Shown piece by piece: positions 45,417-64,000 of a stretch of 64,000 nt of DNA. The translations under genes and the position numbers were made by a program. Source of the DNA: Balanoglossus misakiensis. Taxonomy: Eukaryota; Animalia; Hemichordata. The stretch covers positions 4,712,001 to 4,776,000 of the forward strand of contig CM082590.2 of NCBI GenBank assembly GCA_040954595.2, written 5' to 3'. The notes beneath the pieces were generated by a model. The model did no database searches. It saw nothing but the letters and a program-made list of their open reading frames with translations, and was not told where the DNA came from. Each line of letters begins with the position of its first letter. Position 1 is the first letter of the stretch.

Positions 45417-47969
45417 TTTTTTTTTTTTTTTTTATTATAATAATAATTTATTCAGTACCAATGGCCACCGGCCAAACTGTACAAAAATTCCAAGTATTAC
45501 AGGTTTTCGACGCTAGTACGGTATAAAAAATAGATGCACTGTCACAATTCTGGAAATGGAAATACAGAGCCATAATAAACTATACATGTATATTGTTCAA
45601 ATTATCATGTCTACGTTTTGTTGCATAGAATATGTATCTGCTGAGATTACGAACAGTTTCTACTTTCTCTGAAGAAAGAAGTAGTGTGAATTTATACATA
45701 ACAGGGGGGTTGTGAAAATAGTCTGGAATATATTTGACTCTCAAATCAGAGTACTTTGGACAAACTAACAAAAAATGGAATTCGTCTTCGACATATTTCA
45801 AAGAACACAAATCACACAGTCTGTCACGGCGTGGAATATTATTCCAACGTCCGGTCTCTACCTTTAAACAGTGAGCAGAAACTCTAAATTTGCATAGGGC
45901 TAGTCTGAATACAGGTTTCTCAATCTGTAACAAATATGGTTCTACACGGAGTTCTTTTTTAAAAGTTGAATAGGTTTCCAACCTTCTAGAGTGACTCAAA
46001 TTTTCAGTCCATGGCTGAACATCAATATCAACGCATCTTTGTTTGAAAGTCTTTAAAAACATAGCTTCATTTCCAACACCTTGGTTTTCCCATACTTCAC
46101 CAAAACCATAACTCTGTAGCAAAAAGCGTACATTTTTTGCCCAAAACTTATAACGTGTAACATCAATATTACAAAGCTGAAATTCATAGCATTTATATAC
46201 AATTCTATTTTTATCCATTTTCAAAATACGGAGCCAATATTTGATAATTTTACAATAAATATGCACCCTTAAGGTAACTCTACCTAATTCGCCTCTCATG
46301 GCTGCTACTGAAGTATTTTTATACAGTTTTAAAGCATAACGCATCATTTTGTTGTGAAGCTTCTCAATGTCATGAGCTGGGTGGAAGCCCCAGATTTCTG
46401 AACCATACAGTAAAATTGGAATAATTTTAGCATCAAACAATTTCCACACAATGTCCACTGGCAAAGTGCCAAATTTGTGTAAACAATTTGTGAGAGTATA
46501 AAGAGCTCTATTAGCTTGCTCACTGAGTGCTTTTTGAGCTTGGAACCATTGACCGGTCCAGGAAAAAACTACACCAAGATACCCATGAAATGAGGTTACT
46601 GATACCTGCTGACCATTATAAAACCATTTTTCATACTTTCTTAGTCCCCCACTCCTCCTGAAAACAATAACTTTAGTTTTATCCATATTTACTGTGAGTT
46701 TCCATTTACAACAATATTCATACATTTGGTTAAATAAACGTTGTAAACCTATCCTAGAATAACTCACAAGAGCTAGGTCATCAGCAAATAAAAGGTAGAT
46801 AATTTTTAAAATGCCAATTTGACAGCCAGAAAATTGGTAAGTACTACTCAATGTTTCACCAAGGTCATTTACAAACATATTGAATAAAAGAGGTGACAAA
46901 ACAGAGCCTTATTGTACACCACAACTACATTTGAAAAAGTTAGTTATACCTTTCTGAGTTCGCACACAGGCTTTAACATTTTGGTACATTGAAAAGATGA
47001 CATTGTATACTTTACTTCTAATTCCACATTTGAGTAACTTGTAAAAAAGACAGTAGTGGTCAATACGGTCAAATGCCTTCTCAAAATCAATAAAGGCAAT
47101 GTACACTCTCCCCTTTTGGTGTGCTAAATAGTTAGAAATAATTGTATAAAGTATAAATACATTGTCAGAAGTACAATAAAATTTGCGGAAGCCTGCCTGT
47201 TCATCAACAATTGGATGGTTTTCTTCAAGCCATCTGTGGAGTCTAAAATCAAGTATGCTGCAAAATATTTTACCCATTACCGGGACAGTGTGATACCTCT
47301 AAAATTTCCCGCACAATCATTAGCACCTTTCTTATGAATTGGAGCAATGACACCTGTTGCCCAAGCAGCAGGAAAGTTACCAGAATCCAATACAGCATTA
47401 AAAAGTTTACATAGCAATTCTATAACAATAGGTGGACACGCTTTGAATATGTCAGGTGTTACACCGTCAATCCAAGGTGCTTTGCCACATTTGAGTTTGT
47501 CAATACACACAACAATTTCATCAATAACAATAGGTGCATTTAAACTGTCCAAAGTGTACAGAATGTCATCACTGTTTTCTACATTATCAACAAAATTGGA
47601 AATACTCTCATAAAAAGTTTTAAATTCTTCACTTTCCAGACCTGGAGTATTAAGAAGTACACTGAAATAGTTGAACCAGTCATCACTTTGAATGTCTCCA
47701 GACGGGAGAGTTGATTTTTTTAAACTAATGGCCAAAATTTCTTAGAATTTGTCTGTTTCGATGAGTTCACCAAGTTTTCAAGGTTCTGGTGACGGAAACA
47801 CTTCTTTTTGTGATCAATGAACTCTCTATAATCTTTTTTACACTGTTTTAAGGTATTTAAATTACATACAGATCTATTGTTTCTGAAAGTATTAAGCCTG
47901 GAATGTACAGTACGCTTAAATCGCTTACAATCGCTATCATACCATGACTTTTCAATGGGTACAACAGTA
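45417..47969 (-). mobile_element. 5'-truncated, disrupted non-LTR retrotransposon (RTEX-like, tentative), copy C only
   Basis: RT motifs NFRGIT, EQAGFR, FIDFEKAFD, SPLLFN, LLFADD; C-terminal VETGR..RLC..C..EDEFHFLLVC; AATAAA-(TTA)n-polyA tail; 14-bp TSD AACTGAAATGTGTT (45403-45416/47970-47983); stop at 46909, frameshifts at ~47277 and ~47725. Confidence 0.92.
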
Positions 47970-48323
47970 AACTGAAATGTGTTGGAACCCCCTGACTTTA
48001 GGAGCTGAGATCCACTCCTTTGTATATGCTGTAAAAGACAATAAATTTTCGCGAAATACGCGAGAGCCAAAATAGCGTGAAAATAAAAAGTCGCGTAAAT
48101 TTTTTTGAAGATGACGATGCAGTGAATGAAATAAGAGAACGCGAATATTAAAACTCGGGAATTTGTGGGGCAGTTAACCAAAAAATTGTGCACTTTGGGT
48201 TAAAAGCATGAAACTTGGTACACTTATGCATTGACCCATGGCGGCCATTTTATGATATGGATCCAAAATGACAGCGCCCTCTTGTGGCCAGAAACTGACA
48301 TTGACACTTTCCCCCCCCATTAA

Positions 48324-52278: not shown

Positions 52279-53655
52279 TCATTTCGTTTGTGTTTTCGCA
52301 ATTTCTTCGAACATCTCTTCAATCAACGCTACCATGTCGTCTCTTCCCATGGTCTTGAAAATTGCCAACAGATTCTCAAAGTTGCTTTCATAGAGGGGTT
52401 CCTCTACACGTGGATACTTCTGTCTTGCTGTTTTCTGAGCCTTTGCTTCTTCACTTGAATCTTGCGGGGGTGACGATGTTGATGACAGTGACATTTTTGC
52501 CATACGACCTTTGCTGGCATCGATGTCATGTGACATGGCTTTGGCACCTGCAGCTGTAGTTGTGTCTTTTCCACTTTGATGTTGTTTCCTCTCAGCACAT
52601 ATACGACACCACTCTTTGAAGAGGTACTCTGTAACTGGTCTGCCTGCCCGACCTGCAATCTCTTCAAATCCCATGGTATCCTGGCACTTAATGCCCATCA
52701 AATCTGCCATGCGGCCATAGCTCGGAGAAGGATAACGTTGAATGTCCATTCTCCTTGTCAGTTTTCTTCTGGTTTCTTCAAGCATCCATTTGATATCACA
52801 GCGTTTCCACTTCCTTTGTAAGATCGTTGTGTCATGACCTTGACAAAGCAGGTCACAAACATCTTCTGCTTTACCAACTTTTTGGTTGTACACTTTCTTT
52901 CCCATGTCTTCTGCACGTAGCACGTCATCGAGAGTGTAAAACTCTACTTTTTCCATGTTGCTGTGGTTTGCAAGAGAATCTGCACTCAGGATAAGCTGAT
53001 TCATCCTGTTGCCTGGACATGCGATCGAGAAGACATCCTGTATGTCTTTGGAAACCATCTCAAGAAGCTTGTAGCCCTCACCAATCAACTTCTTGTCTTC
53101 AACTCGTACACAGACATTGACTGCCCTTCTGCCATTGGTCATAAAGACAAGACCTTCAACATCATGGCACACTTTGATACCATTTCTCCATAAGCCACTG
53201 GGCGGCTGGCCAAGCTCTGTGAAATGCTTATATAGACGGGTCTGTAATCTTGGGAAAAAGCCTGCCGTAAAGGAATCTGTTTCATCGTGGCATTCAAAAC
53301 GTCTTCCAAGGTAGATGGTCTTCATTCGGCTCACCTCCCATTGACCTTCAGGCATATCGTCGTCTTGAAGCCCTGGTATGACGAATAGTTTCTCTCCAGT
53401 CTCTGTGATATCATGTGCTTGACAGAGAAGCTCAAAATCCTCTAGAAGGTCGACGATCAGTTGGCTGTTAACACCTTCACCAAGTACATCTTCTATCTTG
53501 TCCATTGACTGAAAACAATCTCTCTTGAACCTGGAACTGAATTGTGCAAATAAAGGGGTAGCCAACATTGGTCCAAACATCCTGTAACACAACCAGTTTG
53601 GATCCAATACCACGACATCTTTTCTTTCTAGAGATGACTTCTTCACAAACAAAAG
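52279..53655 (-). CDS. Terminal exon: COR domain plus death-like domain, TGA stop
   Basis: cag|LLFVKK...VVLDPNWLC...FTAGFFPRLQTRL...LWRNGI...RRKLTRRMD...YGRMADLMGI...LLAIFKTMGRDDMVALIEE*; 459 uninterrupted codons. Confidence 0.93.
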   Translation of the reverse strand, partial: LLFVKKSSLERKDVVVLDPNWLCYRMFGPMLATPLFAQFSSRFKRDCFQSMDKIEDVLGEGVNSQLIVDLLEDFELLCQAHDITETGEKLFVIPGLQDDDMPEGQWEVSRMKTIYLGRRFECHDETDSFTAGFFPRLQTRLYKHFTELGQPPSGLWRNGIKVCHDVEGLVFMTNGRRAVNVCVRVEDKKLIGEGYKLLEMVSKDIQDVFSIACPGNRMNQLILSADSLANHSNMEKVEFYTLDDVLRAEDMGKKVYNQKVGKAEDVCDLLCQGHDTTILQRKWKRCDIKWMLEETRRKLTRRMDIQRYPSPSYGRMADLMGIKCQDTMGFEEIAGRAGRPVTEYLFKEWCRICAERKQHQSGKDTTTAAGAKAMSHDIDASKGRMAKMSLSSTSSPPQDSSEEAKAQKTARQKYPRVEEPLYESNFENLLAIFKTMGRDDMVALIEEMFEEIAKTQTK

Positions 53656-55108
53656 CTGTAAACAAGAAAAATAATGTGAAAAATTGTTATGGAAGGAACA
53701 ATCTGTAACTCTTTTACACATCAACTGCATTAAACGCTGATAAATTCATTTTGTCAAATTTGATGTATCGCATACACTCATCCCAGAATTTGTACAAACA
53801 GAGAATGGATGAGCAACATGATGTTTCTTGTTACTGACCTCTCCTATGTCATGCAGATAGTTGGTGGCTTTTCGTAAGAAACTTTCGTCAATCGTGGGGT
53901 AAATTTCTTTGATTTTCGCCACATATTTTGTCCAATAAAGAGCTGGGAAGTCATCATATAATTCCCTCTTCTTTTCCATTATCTTGGCACACACGCTTGG
54001 AAGCATTTTCACTTTCTAAGAATAAAAATAAATTGATAACATGAAATAATTGGAAGTACCCAAACATTATATTCAGTCAATTTAGGGACTGTGTCACTAA
54101 AAAGAAATATTAAATAAAACCATGAATGACCATGCAAGTCTAATAAGTGACACATAAAACAAAGCATAGAATTTTATTTATCCAATGAAAATTTATGTTG
54201 AAAATATCTGTAGTATACATGGGGGCAGGGGATCAAAAAAGTATCTTTGTAAATCAAGTATCATTTTGACAAGATTTTCATTTGCTTTAAATTCAAATTC
54301 TGATTTTCAGTGGAACTGACCTATCTTGTTTCAACATTTTCATCATTGGTAATTTGGTAAAAAGCATCTCACAACAATGCATTCCAGCTAACATTTTTTT
54401 TGTTTGTAATTACTGAAAATGTTACTTTTGCCAGAAATTCTAATATCAACTAATACTTGTACAACATGATGAGGATGTAATGTTTTACACTTTCAGATAT
54501 ATATTCTTCATGAATCTTGTAGTTGTACACCAATACTGCAGTGCTCTAGTGTATCTGTGCTGATAAAACTTAACAATTCAAAGGCAAATGACTACAGCGA
54601 AATATTGTTACCTTTTTCTGATTTAAACAATCACGGAGTTTCTTCATTTCACTGTCTGTAGAATTACGGCAATTCAACGGAAATATGTCGCTCACTATGT
54701 CTAAATAATCTTGAAACATAGTCTGGGCTTTTGTCAGAACTTCCTTCAGCAAATGACGAGCTGTAAATTATAAAGAGATGACAATATTAATAGCCAGATA
54801 ACTCCATATGAAGAAACTATGGCAAAAAAAGTTCTGCTGTAAACCTCTCTCTCTATTGGGCATAAAATAGTCAGGCCCCAGTTCCCTGTTTATACGTCCA
54901 ACCTTACCATAGAAAACAATTGGTTTGGACTGAATCATGGTGGTGAAATGGTGAAATGTTTTTTATGATTATTTCCAAACTGTGATTTGTGAATCAACTA
55001 ACTATGTTCCACTCAAGTAAATATATTGAAATGCTAAGTATTCAGTTGCTGACTGCGTGGTGAGATGAAACAAACAAACAAACAAACAAACAAACAAACA
55101 AACAAACA

Positions 55109-55140
<32 letters not shown>

Positions 55141-58100
55141 CGAAGTATCCGGTTCGACTGGTCCGATCCAAAGTGCTCAATACAAGAGTAGAGCGGAGTA
55201 TAAAGGAGGGTAGTAGGAGAAACGGAAGGCGGTTAAATCTCTACAACGCTGTTTCGTGAGTCACTAGACTCACTCATCAGGAGATCAAACTGGCGAAAAT
55301 GCAAGGGGGAAGGCATGTTTTTATGCAGGTACACAGGTGGACAGAAATACCTCCTTCTCATAGACAAATGCTTCCCGCAAGACAACAAACTCAGGAAAAT
55401 ATTCAACAGGAACACGATGAAAATTAGCTACAGCTGTATGAACAACAAGAAGCAGATCATCGACAACCACAACAAACGCATCTTGAAATCACACGACAAC
55501 AACACAGACGAGACCGACAACACCAAGACTTGCAACTGCCGACAAAAGGACAAATGCCCGCTCGACGGCAACTGCCACCAAAGCTCCGTCATCTACCAGG
55601 CCACAGTTACGCGCACAGACAACAACACCTCGGATACATACGTCGGACTAACCGAAAACGACTTCAAAACAAGATACAGAAACCACACTTCATCTTTCCG
55701 ACTCGCACGCTCCAGGAACTCCACTGAACTCAGCAAACATATTTGGACTCTGAAGGACAACGACATCGCCCACACTATTTCATGGAAAATTTTAGCCAAA
55801 GCCAAACCATACAACAGCGCAACCAAACGGTGCAACCTCTGCTTAACAGAGAAATTTATTATCATTCGCAACCCAGAAATTTCAACACTCAATAAAAGAA
55901 ACGAACTTGTGTCCTCTTGTCGACACAGACACAAAGCATTGTTACGCAACAATTAAATCTAAAAACTCCCCACACACCAGCTATACACATTGTTATGCAA
56001 AACGGCCCACCCCAACTTACATTCCACCACCTGTGTACCTGCATATAACCACGTCTTCCCCCTTGCATTTTCGCCAGTTTGATCTCCTGATGAGTGAGTC
56101 TAGTGACTCACGAAACAGCGTTGTAGAGATTTAACCGCCTTCCGTTTCTCCTACTACCCTCCTTTATACATACATACATACATACATTCATACATACATA
56201 CATACATACATACATACACATATATACATACACATACTGTACATACACACACTTGAACAAATGACAGATATTATTTGATATATGGAAAAGCTGACAACAC
56301 TAACCTAGAGCCATATCAATTCTCTTCAACTTATCAGCTCGACTTGCAACCAATATCACCACTGGTTTCTCGTATCCTTCTCCTGACTTATCAAATGAAT
56401 ACCTGTCCATGTGGGTTGTTCCTTTCAGAAACCGCAACCAAAACAAAATCTACAAATGAGAATATTTGTGAAAAGTATTATTTTTGAGTCAAAGGAATCA
56501 TGAATTGAATCCAACATGAGATTTCTCATGATTCAGGTAATATCTGGAGCTATGCGATAAACAATGTGAAATAATAATTGAACAACAATGGCATGTTGGT
56601 TCTGCAGGAGACTAATTATAGAAATATCTGCAACTCTATCAAAAAGCCATGAATGGTGACCGAGATAGTGTTGCACATGGAATAAAGTTTCTCAAACAGC
56701 AATATTTTCCATTCCTACAGATAAAACTTGGAAAGTGATAAACAATACAGTCAAACTTTCCTGTGAAGATTCTTACCCGTGGGAACACACGTTCAAAGGT
56801 GTTGAGTTTACCATTCTCGTCTGTAGCTTTGAACACCAATATGGAGACAGCATTGGGTGCTCCCAGAAACATGTTATGAGTGACGTAATACTCAGCCTGG
56901 CCGGCAAAATCCCAAACACTGACATTTCCGACGTCAGGAATATGAACACTTTGGACATCAATACCAGGTGTGGGAATGTGTTCACTTTCTTCAGAAGTTG
57001 TACGTCTCCGTGAAAACCACGAGTATACAATGAAGTTAAACAAAGAAAACTATCATTGGGATTATATATTTATCACATGACAGGCATCTCTTGCTTCACA
57101 AATCACAGAAAATGACATTTTGAGGACAGAGTGAGTAAGGGTTTATTAAGAATTCATTCTGGCCCATCATTTCATCCAGTTTGCAAACTTTCACACAAGC
57201 AACCCTTAATTTATTGCAATATGGCCTACTAGAACTTTAATGCAAATGAAACAAAAATATCAACATACCCTCTGAAGTGACTTCAATAATGTAGTCTTAC
57301 CAACTCCACCATCTCCAGCGAAGAACAACTTAAAAATGTCACATTTCACACCTGGTTCCATCATCAGGATCTTGAACTCATTTCGTCTCTGGTTAAATAA
57401 AGAAATCATAAAAATACAATTTTATTTGTGGGTTTGGAGAGTACAGTTAAGAGTGACACCACATTAAGTAATTTATATCACACTGAAATCAATGGACACT
57501 TTTAATTCAAGATGAATAAGAATGAGCACATTTCAGGTTGTATATTATTAAAATTTGTGATAATATAAAAAATACACTCACCTTAATGTAATCCAACAGC
57601 AACTTCTTAACAGACACTTTTTTAGCGACATCAAGTGGGGTCTTTCCAGTCTAATTATTTAAGATAAAAAGAATTGAAACAATATGATGTTAATATTTAT
57701 AAAAGTAGTAATAATGTAAGAGATAACCATAATTCAAAATTCATTAAATTCTATTGTAATTTTAAAGTTAATTTTGTTTTAAATTTTTCATGAAAAAAAT
57801 AACCACATCAAGTGACATGTTTAATAGTGAATAAAACCTGAATTTCACAAAATTAACAATCATTTAAAGAAAATAAACCCTGATTCCTCTTTTCCATCAC
57901 ACTGTATCAAAAAGTCTTACAAAAAGGACAAAATTATTTAAAACACAAATAAGAAAAATCTCCTTATTAGGAATTGTCAGATTATTAGAAAAAATGTGCA
58001 TAAACATTAATCATTTAATTCAAATTCAAAGATTATGAAGATTAACTACTTGAGAAAAGGGGAGTTGATCTGAACACATGGTGTAGGTCTAGAGTGTCAT

Positions 58101-61100
58101 GGAATAAAATATAAAAGTGGAAGATTGTACCTTATTTTTGCAGTCAATATCAGCTCCATATTGCAACAATAGTTTCACAACTTTTCCATAATCCCCCTGA
58201 AACTCTCCGCCCATTGCTGCCATGTGGAGTGCTGTGTTGCCATCCTATCCAAGAAACAAAAACAGACAACATTATGTAAGAGGTACAACAAGAAAAGTCA
58301 TAAAATTAAATTCGAAATGTACTGTGAGATTTCAACAAACAAACAAACAAACAAACAAACAAATGTTTCTAAACTGATAGAATTAACCTGCAGAAGCCAG
58401 GTAGGTATTTACCTTGTTTTGTATGGTCACATCAGCTTTGTGTTCCAATAACAATCTGACACGGCCTTCATCACCATACCTTGCTGCTACAAGGTGCAAA
58501 GGGGTGTCTCCATCCTGTAAGTAATGAAGGAGGAGCATGATGAGGATGTCAGAAAACTGAAATGTCACATGAGTTAATTTCTTAAAATGAATAAATGAAT
58601 AAAAAAACAAACAACAAATACTCATCATAAACTCAAACAATGAAAAAATCTCCTTATAATGAATTGTCAGATTATTAGGTGACAGACAGGAGTTGGCAGA
58701 TGCTGGAGGCCGACAGACAATCGCCCTATCTGATACTCTCCACATCACAGAAAGTGGAGATAGATAGTCTCAAAGATAGGATTGGCATCGACCGTCATGA
58801 GTCAACACTTGCCTGTACAACACCTGACCCGATAGAGGGAGTAGTTTTGATTCAATTAAAGGACAATGACAAATTATATGGCACCTCCTTATGATCAATT
58901 GTATTAGGTGACAGACAGGTGTTGGCAGATGCTGGAGGCCGACAGACAATCGCCCTATCTGATACTCTCCACATCACTGAAAGTGGAGATAGAAAGTCTC
59001 AAAGATAGGATTGGCATCGACCGTCATGAGTCAACACCTGCCTGTACAACACCTGACCCGATAGAGGGAGTAGTTTTGATTCAAAGGACAATGACAAATT
59101 ATATGGCACCTCCTTATGATCAATTGTATTAAGTGACAGACAGGAGTTGGCAGATGCTGGAGGCCGACAGACAATCGCCCTATCTGATACGCTCCACATC
59201 ACTGAAAGTGGAGATAGAAAGTCTCAAAGATAGGATTGGCATCGACCGTCATGAGTCAACACCTGCCTGTACAACACCTGACCTGATAGAGGGAGTACTT
59301 TTGATTCAATGGACAATGACAAATTATATGGCACCTCCTTATGATCAATTGTATAAGGTGACAGACAGGAGTTGGCAGATGCTGGAGGCCGACAGACAAT
59401 CACCCTATCTGATACTCTCCACATCACTGAAAGTGGAGATAGAAAGTCTCAAAGATAGGATTGGCATCGACCGTCATGAGTCAACACCTGCCTGTACAAC
59501 ACCTGACCTGATAGAGGGAGTAGTTTTGATTCAATGGACAATGACAAATTATATGGCACCTCCTTATGATCAATTGTATTAGGTGACAGACAGGTGTTGG
59601 CAGATGCTGGAGGCCGACAGACAATCGCCCTATCTGATACGCTCCACATCACTGAAAGCGGAGATAGAAGTCTCAAAGATAGGATTGGCATCGACCGTCA
59701 TCAGTCAACACCTGCCTGTACAACACCTGACCTGATAGAGGGAGTAGTTTTGATTCAAAGGACAATGACAAATAGATACATTGTATCCTCAACACAATTT
59801 ACCACAAAAACTACAATGGAAAGAACACCATTGTGCAAACTCATACTGTTTTAGGAGTGCTTGGTTAAAATAGTGTTCAGGCATTTTCAGACTTTTACAA
59901 AATTGTACATTTCAAATTCAAAGATTATGAAGATTAACTACTTGAGAAAATGGGAGTTGATCAGAACACATGGTGTAGGTCTAGAGTGTCATGGAATAAA
60001 ATATAAAAGTGGAAGATTGTACCTTATTTTTGCAGTCAATATCAGCTCTATATTGCAACAATAGTTTCACAACTTTTTTATAATCACCATACCACTCATT
60101 GCCCATTGCTGCCAGGTGAAGTGCTGTGTTGCCATCCTATCCAAGAAACAAAAACAGACAACATCATGTAAGAGGTACAACAAGAAAAGTTCTGCATAAA
60201 CAGCTCAACCAAACATACTGAATTGATAATTAACCTCTAGTTTTTCAATAGTATTTAGGATGCTTATATCATTTTTGAGTTGGATGTCTCCACGTCAATG
60301 TAGCTTCAAGTGATAGAGTTGAATTAAATGAATGAATTGTGTGTATTTCGTCCACCATGTGAGAATGTTACATATGAACATAAATTTCCTCATAATGATA
60401 AACTATTTAAAGAAAATATGGGTAGTAGATTGTGCCTTTATTCATCTTGACAGTTTTGAGGGAAAAACTGATTTGGATCAATTTGTAAAGATCTGCATAA
60501 GACCAGAAAATTTACATGGATGGGAAATCTTTATTTAGACAAAAGACTAGAGATGACATTGATGACCATTAATGTTCAGAAAGTGTTTGTTTGAGTGAAA
60601 TACTGTGTTTTGATTCGCATAGAGCACCTAAGTTACTGGTATCATTATCAGAGGTACAGAACTTGTCTGTGGTCATCCATTATTATGAAGCAGTTTCCTT
60701 GTGAGTAATTTCTTTTCAACACCGTTCTGGTGAGTATTTCTGTATGTGATAGAGGAGGAGCATGAGAACAATGTCATAAAATGTGAAATGTTAAGTGAGG
60801 TTTCCTAAACAAATAAATAAAGAAATAAAGAAACAAACAAACAAACAAACAAACCAATCTTTCTAAATTAATAGAATTAACCTGTAGAAGTCAGGTTGGT
60901 ATTAACCTTGTTTTGCATGGTCACATCAGCTTTGTGTTCCAATAACAATCTGAGACCGCCTTCATTGGGAGACCCTGCTGCAAGGTGCAAAGGGGTGTTT
61001 CCATTCTGTAAGTTGAAGGAGGAGCATGATGAGGAAGTCAGAAAACTGTCACATGAGTTAATTTCTTAAAATGAACAAATGAATAAAAAACAACAACAAA

Positions 61101-64000
61101 TAGTCATCATAAACTCAAACATCTCAAACAATGAAAAAATCTCCTAATAATGAATTGTCAGATTATTAGAGGGAGTAGTTTTGATTCAAAGGACAATGAC
61201 AAATTATATGGCACCTCCTTATGATCAATTGTATTAGGTGACAGACAGGAGTTGGCAGATGCTGGAGGCCGACAGACAATCGCCCTATCTGATATACTCC
61301 ACATCACTGAAAGTGGAGATAGAAAGTCTCAAAGATAGGATTGGCATCGACCGTCATGAGTCAACACCTGCCTGTACAACACCTGACCCGATAGAGGGAG
61401 TAGTTTTGATTCAAAGGACAATGACAAATTATATGGCACCTCCTTATGATCAATTGTATTAGGTGACAGACAGGAGTTGGCAGATGCTGGAGGCCGACAG
61501 ACAATCGCCCTATCTGATATACTCCACATCACTGGAAGTGGAGATAGAAAGTCTCAAAGATAGGATTGGCATCGACCGTCATGAGTCAACACCTGCCTGT
61601 ACAACACCTGACCCGATAGAAGGAGTAGTTTTGATTCAAAGGACAATGACAAATTATATGGCACCTCCTTATGATCAATTGTATTAGGTGACAGACAGGA
61701 GTTGGCAGATGCTGGAGGCCGACAGACAATCGCCCTATCTGATACTCTCCACATCACTGAAAGTGGAGATAGAAAGTCTCAAAGATAGGATTGGCATCGA
61801 CCGTCATGAGTCAACACCTGCCTGTACAACACCTGACCCGATAGAGGGAGTAGTTTTGATTCAAAGGACAATGACAAATTATATGGCACCTCCTTATGAT
61901 CAATTGTATTAGGTGACAGACAGGAGTTGGCAGATGCTGGAGGCCGACAGACAATCGCCCTATCTGATACTCTCCACATCACTGAAAGTGGAGATAGAAA
62001 GTCTCAAAGATAGGATTGGCATCGACCGTCATGAGTCAACACCTGCCTGTACAACACCTGACCCGATAGAAGGAGTAGTTTTGATTCAAAGGACAATGAC
62101 AAATTATATGGCACCTCCTTATGATCAATTGTATTAGGTGACAGACAGGAGTTGGCAGATGCTGGAGGCCGACAGACAATCGCCCTATCTGATATACTCC
62201 ACATCACTAAAAGTGGAGATAGAAAGTCTCAAAGATAGGATTGGCATCGACCGTTATGAGTCAACACCTGCCTGTACAACACCTGACCCGATAGAGGGAG
62301 TAGTTTTGATTCAAAGGACAATGACAAATTATATGGCACCTCCTTATGATCAATTGTATTAGGTGACAGACAGGAGTTGGCAGATGCTGGAGGCCGACAG
62401 ACAATCGCCCTATCTGATATACTCCACATCACTGAAAGTGGAGATAGAAAGTCTCAAAGATAGGATTGGCATCGACCGTCATGAGTCAACACCTGCCTGT
62501 ACAACACCTGACCAAATAGAGGGAGTAGTTTTGATTCAAAGGACAATGACAAATTATATGGCACCTCCTTATGATCAATTGTATTAGGTGACAGACAGGA
62601 GTTGGCAGATGCTGGAGGCCGACAGACAATCGCCCTATCTGATACTCTCCACATCACTGAAAGTGGAGATAGAAAGTCTCAAAGATAGGATTGGCATCGA
62701 CCGTCATGAGTCAACACCTGCCTGTACAACACCTGACCCTATAGAGGGAGTACTTTTGATTCAAAGGGCAATGACAAATTATATGGCACCTCCTTATGAT
62801 CAATTGTATTAGGTGACAGACAGGTGTTGGCAGATGCTGGAGGCCGACAGACAATCGCCCTATCTGATACTCTCCACATCACTGAAAGTGGAGATAGAAA
62901 GTCTCAAAGATAGGATTGGCATCGACCGTCATGAGTCAACACCTGCCTGTACAACATCTGACCCGATAGAGGGAGTAGTTTTCATTCAAAGGACAATGAC
63001 AAATTATATGGCACCTCCTTATGATCAATTGTATTAGGTGACAGACAGGTGTTGGCAGATGCTGGAGGCCGACAGACAATCGCCCTATCTGATACTCTCC
63101 ACATCACTGAAAGTGGAGATAGAAAGTCTCAAAGATAGGATTGGCATCGACCGTCATGAGTCAACACCTGTCTGTACAACACCTGACCCGATAGAGGGAG
63201 TAGTTTTGATTCAATGGACAATGACAAATTATATGGCACCTCCTTATGATCAATTGTATTAGGTGACAGACAGGTGTTGGCAGATGCTGGAGGCCGACAG
63301 ACAATCGCCCTATCTGATACTCTCCACATCACTGAAAGTGGAGATAGAAAGTCTCAAAGATAGGATTGGCATCGACCGTCATGAGTCAACACCTGCCTGT
63401 ACAACACCTGACCTGATAGAGGGAGTACTTTTGATTCAATGGACAATGACAAATTATATGGCACCTCCTTATGATCAATTGTATTAGGTGACAGACAGGT
63501 GTTGGCAGATGCTGGAGGCCGACAGACAATCGCCCTATCTGATACTCTCCACATCACTGAAAGTGGAGATAGAAAGTCTCAAAGATAGGATTGGCATCGA
63601 CCGTCATCAGTCAACACCTGCCTGTACAACACCTGACCAAATAGAGGGAATAGTTTTGATTCAAAGGACAATGGCAAATAGATACATTGTATCCTCAACA
63701 CAATTTACGACAAAAACTACAATGGAAAGAAGACCATTGTGCAAACTCATACTGTTTTAGGAGTGCTTGGTTAAAATAGTGTTCAGGCATTTTCAAGACT
63801 TTTTATAAAATTGTGCATTTCAAATTCAAAGATTATGAAGATTAACTACTTGAGAAAATGGGAGTTGATCAGAACACATGGTGTAGGTCTAGAGTGTCAT
63901 GGAATAAAATATAAAAGTGGAAGATTGTACCTTATTTTTGCAGTCAATATCAGCTCCATATTGCAACAATAGTTTCACAACTTTTCCATAATCCTTCCGA
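52279..64000 (-). CDS. Ankyrin-Roc-COR-death domain ROCO protein gene (DAPK1-like architecture, no kinase seen in window), 5'-incomplete, >=12 exons
   Basis: Exons read manually and joined in frame: 63931->64000, 60907-61005, 60023-60136, 58413-58514, 58131-58244, 57582-57650, 57269-57388, 56777-57022/57049, 56305-56449, 54612-54760, 53839-54015, 52279-53655. Junctions are GT-AG except one doubtful acceptor near 57023. Motifs: ankyrin G.T[PA]LH, P-loop GDGGVGKT, TPGID, WDFAGQ, VILVASRAD, COR LHDIGE/VVLDPNWL/FFPRLQ, C-terminal death-fold. Confidence 0.9.
53839..54015 (-). CDS. COR N-terminal exon
   Basis: tag|KVKMLPSVCAKI...FLRKATNYLHDIGE|gtcagt. Confidence 0.9.
54612..54760 (-). CDS. Roc C-terminal exon
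   Basis: cag|(A)RHLLKEVLTKAQTMFQDYLDIVSDIFPLNCRNSTDSEMKKLRDCLNQKK|gtaac; donor chosen because it is phase 0 with the next exon. Confidence 0.82.
55237..55285 (-). ncRNA. Type I hammerhead ribozyme, inverted copy (sense to the ROCO pre-mRNA)
   Basis: Exact reverse complement of 56082-56130. Confidence 0.88.
56082..56130 (+). ncRNA. Type I hammerhead ribozyme in Penelope pLTR
   Basis: ATCTC-CTGATGA-GTGAGTC(TAGT)GACTCAC-GAAAC-AGCGTT-GTA-GAGAT: complete catalytic core, stems I and II, short stem III. Confidence 0.88.
56305..56449 (-). CDS. Roc exon with G4 region (missed by ORF track)
   Basis: tag|ILFWLRFLKGTTHMDRYSFDKSGEGYEKPVVILVASRADKLKRIDMAL+G|gttagt; ends in phase 1, matching the next exon. 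Confidence 0.88.
56777..57022 (-). CDS. Roc exon with switch I/II (acceptor uncertain: 57022 after a non-canonical AC, or 57049 after an in-frame AG)
   Basis: SWFSRRRTTSEESEHIPTPGIDVQSVHIPDVGNVSVWDFAGQAEYYVTHNMFLG...VFPR|gtaag. Confidence 0.85.
57269..57388 (-). CDS. Roc GTPase exon with P-loop
   Basis: cag|RRNEFKILMMEPGVKCDIFKLFFAGDGGVGKTTLLKSLQR|gtatg. Confidence 0.92.
57582..57650 (-). CDS. C-terminal capping ankyrin exon
   Basis: tag|TGKTPLDVAKKVSVKKLLLDYIK|gtgagt. Confidence 0.88.
58131..58244 (-). CDS. Ankyrin exon type A (114 nt, phase 0-0)
   Basis: tag|DGNTALHMAAMGGEFQGDYGKVVKLLLQYGADIDCKNK|gt. Confidence 0.92.
58413..58514 (-). CDS. Ankyrin exon type B (102 nt, phase 0-0)
   Basis: cag|DGDTPLHLVAARYGDEGRVRLLLEHKADVTIQNK|gt. 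Confidence 0.92.
58679..59772. repeat. 225-bp intronic satellite, ~4.8 units
   Basis: GTGACAGACAGG unit starts at 58679, 58908, 59133, 59358, 59583. Confidence 0.97.
60023..60136 (-). CDS. Ankyrin exon type A (114 nt, phase 0-0)
   Basis: tag|DGNTALHLAAMGNEWYGDYKKVVKLLLQYRADIDCKNK|gt. Confidence 0.9.
60907..61005 (-). CDS. Ankyrin exon type B (99 nt, phase 0-0)
   Basis: cag|NGNTPLHLAAGSPNEGGLRLLLEHKADVTMQNK|gt. Confidence 0.9.
61168..63680. repeat. 225-bp intronic satellite, ~11 units
   Basis: Unit starts every 225 nt from 61238 to 63488, preceded by a partial unit. Confidence 0.97.
63931..64000 (-). CDS. Ankyrin exon type A (cut by window end)
   Basis: Translates RKDYGKVVKLLLQYGADIDCKNK, then GT donor; paralogous to 58131-58244 and 60023-60136. 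Confidence 0.9.

Follow-up and report, generated by a model that had tools for sequence, protein, structure and literature searches.

A hypervariable patch in the one-repeat ankyrin exons of a DAPK1-like ROCO gene of Balanoglossus misakiensis

The ankyrin exons of a ROCO gene in the window (the whole 64,000-nucleotide stretch of Balanoglossus misakiensis DNA analyzed here) show excess divergence that is confined to a single 8-codon patch, located at the same structural place in both of the exon types, A and B. On balance, we favor as the likeliest explanation that modular ankyrin exons evolve in concert while selection diversifies the binding rim of a protein with sensor, switch and effector parts. 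The product is likely an intracellular, fast-evolving sensor of foreign molecules. It is the membership of the ankyrin exons in a Roc-COR-death gene that gives the patch pattern its meaning.

The gene lies on the minus strand and has the order ankyrin–Roc–COR–death domain (a ROCO protein, 'DAPK1-like'), the hypervariable exons forming its ankyrin part. The gene model holds 935 open codons, without a stop or frameshift inside, and 11 introns, all GT-AG, before the stop codon at 52279. A single repeat is encoded per phase-0 exon in the order A-B-A-B-A-cap, all ankyrin exons (five plus cap) are of phase 0-0, i.e., frame-preserving one-repeat exons, and all 4 of the whole A and B exons have a Pfam Ank match above the cut-off. 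Because every repeat is one phase-0 exon, repeat units can be gained, lost or skipped without a frameshift. From the 5' side, the features are:
63931..64000, minus strand: ankyrin exon A3, of which the window end leaves only the 3' part, with the 5' end of the gene beyond the window; codons 18-38 identical to A1.
60907..61005 (99 nt), minus strand: ankyrin exon B2, 33 codons, phase 0-0; Pfam Ank E=2e-8, AG/GT sites.
60023..60136 (114 nt), minus strand: ankyrin exon A2, 38 codons, phase 0-0, with a 5-residue insertion in the helix1-helix2 turn; Pfam Ank E=2e-10.
58413..58514 (102 nt), minus strand: ankyrin exon B1, 34 codons, phase 0-0, with the variable patch at about 58461-58496; Pfam Ank, pairwise comparison and contigs.
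58131..58244 (114 nt), minus strand: ankyrin exon A1, 38 codons, phase 0-0, with the variable patch in codons 13-20 (58185-58208); Pfam Ank and pairwise comparison.
57582..57650, minus strand: short ankyrin exon C that caps the array, phase 0-0; in Ptychodera P0156, B-like and A-like repeats are followed by a cap that matches it.
57269..57388, minus strand: Roc exon 1 with the P-loop (G1, GDGGVGKT); weak Pfam Roc match (E=0.016) and alignment to relatives.
56777..57049, minus strand: Roc exon 2 (G2 Thr, G3 DFAG); Pfam Roc E=7e-7.
56305..56449, minus strand: Roc exon 3; collinear with relatives in blastp.
54612..54760, minus strand: Roc exon 4 and linker; gene model.
53839..54015, minus strand: COR exon 1; gene model.
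52279..53655, minus strand: last exon with COR, then a predicted death-domain fold and the stop codon; Pfam COR-B E=1e-8, Foldseek RocCOR 3dpu E=3e-9, VIA-align 3mop_K Z 11.6 (a range shared with generic helical bundles).

The initial annotation had compared the exon copies by hand, and its counts are exact. A1 and A2 differ at 13 of 114 nt, with 6 replaced and 2 silent codons and 10 of the 13 differences in codons 13-20. B1 and B2 differ at 11 nt, which replace 9 codons, and by a 3-nt indel, with no purely silent codon (pathway counting gives one silent step). The third A copy, cut by the window end, differs as reported and bears a third version of codons 16-17. The introns beside the A exons are near-identical, as had also been described, with 3 of 166 nt differing (1/54 upstream, 2/112 downstream). 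The further claim that exons are more divergent than introns stands for A1 and A2 (Fisher p=0.001), and A2 and A3 likewise differ at 9/69 exon against 4/249 intron positions plus 2 indels (p=0.0002); it does not stand for B as a whole (p=0.11), whose flanks are not near-identical (12/204 substitutions and 4 indels). The patch accounts for 10 of 24 nt in A, against 3/90 in the rest of the exon, and for 8/24 in B, against 3/75, and outside it both exons are at the level of their flanks (p=0.43 for A, p=0.77 for B). On this flank comparison, the claim of a higher exon than intron divergence was rejected for the whole of B and for the non-patch parts of A and B.

The 8-codon patch windows were picked after inspection of the data, and clustering corrected for scanning gives p=0.00015 for A by nucleotide, where nucleotides within a codon are not independent, 0.077 for A by codon and 0.026 for B by codon. 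In four of the A codons, 2-3 changes coincide (p=0.011). The statement that the differences are almost only non-synonymous lacks significance: pooled pN/pS is 1.78 (p=0.30), and when random changes are simulated, A and B together have no more than two silent codons with p=0.06-0.17, according to the transition bias used. Within A taken by itself, silent sites (0.094) and replacement sites (0.120) have diverged to nearly the same degree. When silent and intron sites are pooled, they differ at 4.4%, compared with 12.5% of non-synonymous sites (p=0.0007). The signal is real and localized, and the earlier dN/dS wording overstated it.

Alignment to DARPins agrees with the location first proposed for the changes, placing them where helix 1 ends and in the turn and, for B, also at positions 3 and 5 of the hairpin. 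In an ungapped alignment of B2 with DARPins, the B changes occupy consensus positions 3, 5, 13-16, 19, 20 and 32, and the A patch covers the 5-residue insertion in the helix1-helix2 turn. Position 14 is among those randomized in DARPin design. Designed libraries randomize positions 2, 3, 5, 10, 13 and 33, a continuous binding surface on hairpin and helix 1, as described in the available part of PMC4308713, and DARPins bind via the randomized concave face according to that of PMC8229355. Patch positions 15, 16, 19 and 20, together with the A insertion, fall outside the classical randomized set. Thus, the patch is predicted to overlap the rim of the binding groove and to extend past it, burial of the patch residues being judged by alignment to solved repeats. 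A constant framework with variable hairpin and helix 1 positions is common to this gene and to the DARPin and ANK-N5C libraries (PMC4308713, in the part available), whereas here the gene is natural and variation reaches into the helix1-helix2 turn with length variants.

The closest relatives are hemichordate, namely 'DAPK1-like' models of Ptychodera, Glandiceps and Saccoglossus. Identity is 34-39% between the whole model and P0001, P0003 and P0004 and 50-52% between the last exon and Ptychodera P0006 and P0156, the latter of which has the same order of a B-like repeat, an A-like repeat with turn insertion and a cap. A protein search with the last exon returned 210 cluster representatives (the best 150 of 210 being listed), and 41 of 153 relative records have ankyrin matches. 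Homogenized arrays occur in 9 of the 28 proteins with at least four repeats, five isoform duplicates having been left out; the sources of these arrays are three hemichordates, amphioxus, a brittle star and one further record. For the test of these arrays, nearest-neighbor repeats were paired on framework positions only, end repeats were removed in arrays of more than five repeats, and 18 other proteins served as background (one near-duplicate was dropped). For 8 of the 9 arrays, the differences between sister repeats are greater at positions 2, 3, 5, 10, 13, 14 and 33, on the binding face, than at equally free outer-surface positions (Wilcoxon p=0.012), in proteins that are related to each other and in protein data, which give no dS. 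Variability in the relatives peaks at positions 2, 3, 5, 13 and 14, and the window patch continues to 15-20. In P0010, a long array whose repeats are the most B-like, the binding face (0.49) and the outer positions (0.47) are nearly equal because its turn varies as it does in the window gene; there, positions 15-20 are as variable as the binding face.

A possible, if doubtful, alternative to diversifying selection is relaxed constraint with patchy gene conversion: old variants of a tolerant turn would be copied in short tracts and the framework and introns homogenized in long ones, with no selection for specificity. This account agrees with a pN/pS that is not above 1 and with silent steps inside the patch (A codon 17, B codon 13); codons changed at several bases and turns of differing length are in line with block transfer, and positions 13-18 are variable in unrelated ankyrin repeats as well. 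However, a neutral patch would be expected to be homogenized along with its flanks, which differ by about 2% in A, and something must exempt it; moreover, equally tolerant outer positions are uniform in the relatives, whereas binding-face positions are not (8 of 9 arrays). Of the two causes first proposed, diversifying selection or targeted conversion, selection is the likeliest although window dN/dS does not differ from 1, and nothing points to targeted or somatic conversion. Against selection on the binding rim stand the window pN/pS, not significantly above 1, the near-equal silent and replacement divergence in A, the nonsignificant difference between B exon and flank, the continuation of the window patch to positions 15-20 beyond the peaks of the relatives, and the doubtful Roc exon 2 acceptor described below.

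Further copies of the exons were found in sequencing contigs. A 201-nt stretch around B1 is present in 234 and 205 contigs from runs X1 and X2 (one sample), and the B exon is multi-copy in the genome, contig depth giving no copy number. In many of these other copies it is again the patch that varies. Around B1 there are 25 variant rows at 4% or more, of which 24 are exonic (21 in codons 7-18, 1 in codons 19-34 and 2 in codons 1-6), and the deeply covered acceptor intron 58515-58543 has 0 at that threshold; contig shares are not allele counts, and short overlapping contigs inflate the depth of conserved sites, hide minor variants and exaggerate the contrast of the patch. Contig depth falls more than 10-fold across the B patch, and loose ends provide more turn sequences, in one of which five residues, rather than the four of B1 and B2, separate the Ala-Ala and Glu-Gly anchors. 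Register shifts around the extra codon of B1 make the variant rows unusable for dN/dS, and an amino-acid reading of single rows for that purpose was rejected on this ground. A variants at codons 13 and 17 and one head-to-tail B joint were seen among the 40 of 232 rows listed. Contigs of B type outnumber those of Roc by far and are also much deeper; summed depth (about 1e5 for B against about 1e3 for Roc) was rejected as a copy number because overlapping contigs inflate it. Runs X3 and X4, with the stretch at a depth of 2-3 only, were left out for habitat. Metagenome contigs yielded 0 loci in a pattern scan, and the open frame surrounding B2, used as a protein query, had none of its 1 candidate scored.

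The introns between the ankyrin exons contain three further features:
61167..63679: 225-bp satellite, 11.2 copies, in the A3-B2 intron (tandem-repeat detection).
58673..59773: 225-bp satellite, 4.9 copies, in the A2-B1 intron (tandem-repeat detection).
60740..60845, minus strand: acceptor-side intron of B in a second, diverged copy that is not followed by a B exon; 76% identity to 58515-58618.

Among the 14 whole satellite units of the two arrays, the mean difference is 2.2%, and we reject the satellite as coding because a tandem dimer of it has stops in each of the six frames. Since the A-to-B introns have their flanks and the 225-bp satellite in common, whole A-intron-B units have been recently duplicated or converted. 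The diverged acceptor copy is likely what is left of a B unit that was lost. In the part of the gene inside the window, blastn detected no ankyrin exon that is spare or inverted, and this acceptor copy is the one orphan there. A 35-nt piece of the A1-cap intron (57954-57989) recurs at 58644-58678 and 61135-61170, beside each satellite array, and the A1-cap intron is likely a satellite-free form of the A-to-B intron.

Programmed diversification within the animal, in which alternative splicing of phase-0 exon cassettes or targeted somatic conversion would give each cell its own binding surface, is in our judgment very unlikely. The uniform 0-0 phase of the ankyrin exons, the excess of B-type over Roc contigs in number and depth and the head-to-tail B joint would all suit it, as would one of seven isoform pairs of relatives, an amphioxus gene model, that differs by exactly three repeats. 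On the other hand, A and B alternate in protein order as in one continuous array, the window has no spare or inverted ankyrin exon, the other six of the seven isoform pairs have their differences beyond the repeats or confined to the N-terminus, and no recombination signal or editing signature was seen.

The switch part of the protein is a Roc G-domain with G1-G3, as indicated by the Pfam Roc matches and by the alignment of G1, the G2 Thr and G3 with relatives. COR follows directly, by its Pfam COR-B match and by the match of the predicted last-exon structure (pLDDT 83) to RocCOR 3dpu. A NACHT or NB-ARC STAND NTPase was also considered, and the P-loop alone gives weak matches below the cut-off; the domain is Roc-COR by Pfam and Foldseek. 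A C-terminal death domain of the DAPK1 type is predicted from the structure model, in which the last 172 residues align best with 3mop_K among death domains in VIA-align (rmsd 1.8, 92 of 93 residues), at a Z score below about 13, a value under which a match may reflect helical bundles in general. Entries of death-fold proteins make up all of the top 45 VIA-align rows for the C-terminal region of the model; VIA-align alone detected the domain, Pfam and Foldseek being without a match to it. A Ser/Ala/Lys-rich insert of about 55 residues, of low confidence or unstructured, splits the predicted domain (52360-52540, minus strand).

The acceptor of Roc exon 2 is doubtful. Its sole in-frame AG (57051-57050) is located inside a stretch resembling a dispersed repeat (about 56993-57080), where contigs show a depth peak and loose ends and where position 57050 reads another letter in all aligned contigs. 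The linker before G2 is similar in length to that of relatives (32 vs 31 residues) and unlike it in sequence. The window copy may use an acquired acceptor or may be disabled. The stretch at 56993-57089, likely a dispersed-repeat fragment, forms the 5' part of Roc exon 2, possibly as a recent exonization or a disabling insertion. A U12-type intron before this exon was considered by eye and dropped, its donor being off the consensus. In the intron between Roc exons 3 and 4, an element at 55198-56169 has 143-nt inverted arms (97%), (CATA)n flanks and a 239-codon plus-strand frame, which we take to resemble the GIY-YIG endonuclease end of a Penelope-type element and which has no Pfam match.

That the gene is a decaying pseudogene copy, or that the differences are assembly noise, is very unlikely: although the region is rich in satellites and segmental duplications, the linker before G2 is unlike relatives and overlaps a likely repeat whose aligned contigs lack the acceptor AG, and an orphan B acceptor is present, the 935 codons are free of stops and frameshifts with 11 of 11 introns GT-AG, decay or errors would not cluster in one structural patch of both repeat types, and several of the alternative letters recur in independent contigs. 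Because of this recurrence, assembly error is an unlikely cause of the differences.

Domains of the CARD, Death, caspase, TIR or GT4-conflict families were found in at least 8 of the 32 relatives scanned and in two more in a second profile search, which suggests a sensor-switch-effector layout. The relatives P0027, P0029, P0060 and P0037 have a COR-type core with a GT4-conflict glycosyltransferase, with caspase and several CARDs, with CARD and TIR, or with CARD and Death. No kinase family is given for close relatives in their domain annotation; a kinase-motif regular expression, negative in 11 of 11 proteins, was set aside for want of a verified positive control.

Under concerted evolution with diversifying selection, tandem duplication or gene conversion would keep the repeats alike, and selection would diversify one patch at the predicted groove rim, such that each repeat may add a different contact surface. 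Ligand binding might then shift the nucleotide or dimer state of Roc-COR, as can be proposed from the Roco biology covered in the available part of PMC6337361. Such a shift could expose or cluster the death domain and recruit a death-fold adaptor, leading to cell-death or NF-kB-type signaling. Turnover of parasites or pathogens would favor new patch sequences.

Several known systems resemble this design in part. In the brown-algal LRR-ROCO family of Ectocarpus and Saccharina, a Roc-COR core likewise stands behind an array with one repeat per exon, and ligand-facing residues are variable in a multigene family of proposed immune receptors, according to the available parts of PMC3341825 and PMC11378527. 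These also report positive selection and splicing; for the window gene, pairwise counts give the nonsignificant pN/pS noted above. The present gene differs in being animal and in having ankyrin (Pfam Ank) rather than LRR repeats, two alternating exon types and a predicted C-terminal death domain. Inverted or spare intronic repeat exons were not detected in its part inside the window. Fungal NLRs of Podospora with conserved ANK, TPR or WD repeats share ankyrin repeats in apparent concerted evolution, hypervariable sites on inner helices and the hairpin, and the coupling of an NTPase switch to an effector, as described in the part of PMC4986451 available. Here, in contrast, the switch is a Roc-COR GTPase rather than NACHT or NB-ARC, the repeats are N-terminal and exon-split, the patch extends into the turn, and repeat identity by residue (73-84%) is below the 85% cut-off given in that part of PMC4986451.

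The ankyrin–Roc–COR–death order is that of the DAPK1 group of Roco proteins, as set out in the available part of PMC6337361. Database models labeled 'DAPK1-like' have it in Ptychodera, Saccoglossus, Glandiceps, Branchiostoma, Asterias and Amphiura. DAPK1 itself is single-copy, whereas here we find a multi-copy family with homogenized arrays and a hypervariable patch, whose close relatives are given no kinase. The gene is thus a Roco of DAPK1-type domain order, neither a brown-algal LRR-ROCO nor a fungal NLR, though it works likewise.

Expanded death-fold and ROCO-TIR proteins have been described in marine invertebrates (PMC8195603, PMC9334734), and the available parts of these sources do not describe this exon pattern. 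No animal description of it was found in the main texts of open-licence PMC and bioRxiv papers, while subscription papers or supplements may hold one; an animal gene family with this pattern is apparently undescribed. We regard it as a tentative and rather unlikely extension that acorn worms, echinoderms and amphioxus have an undescribed class of intracellular immune receptors, NLR-like and built on Roc-COR, whose ankyrin exons would be a natural DARPin library recombined or spliced within the animal. If this were so, a variable recognition repertoire would exist next to the origin of vertebrates. Should the favored explanation hold, the repeat-shuffling design proposed for brown algae and fungi, which diversifies a binding face, would have an animal counterpart that combines ankyrin exons with a death domain and occurs in those invertebrates that are closest to chordates. 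ROCO proteins would then also gain a concrete, testable role as non-self sensors and would offer a natural source of diversified ankyrin binders. The database label 'DAPK1-like' gives no hint of such a sensor design.

The remainder of the window is repetitive. Positions 1-45400, where no convincing long reading frame was found, hold a block of about 18-23 kb that looks non-coding and is present two to three times, its copies being 95-98% identical. Satellites of 91 bp, 274-290 bp and 170-230 bp and (CAT)n tracts occur within the blocks, in copy numbers that vary from block to block. Between these blocks and the gene, at 45583-48199 on the minus strand, is the remnant of a non-LTR retrotransposon, with a reverse transcriptase frame (Pfam RVT_1, E=1e-12) that contains stops and a frame change.
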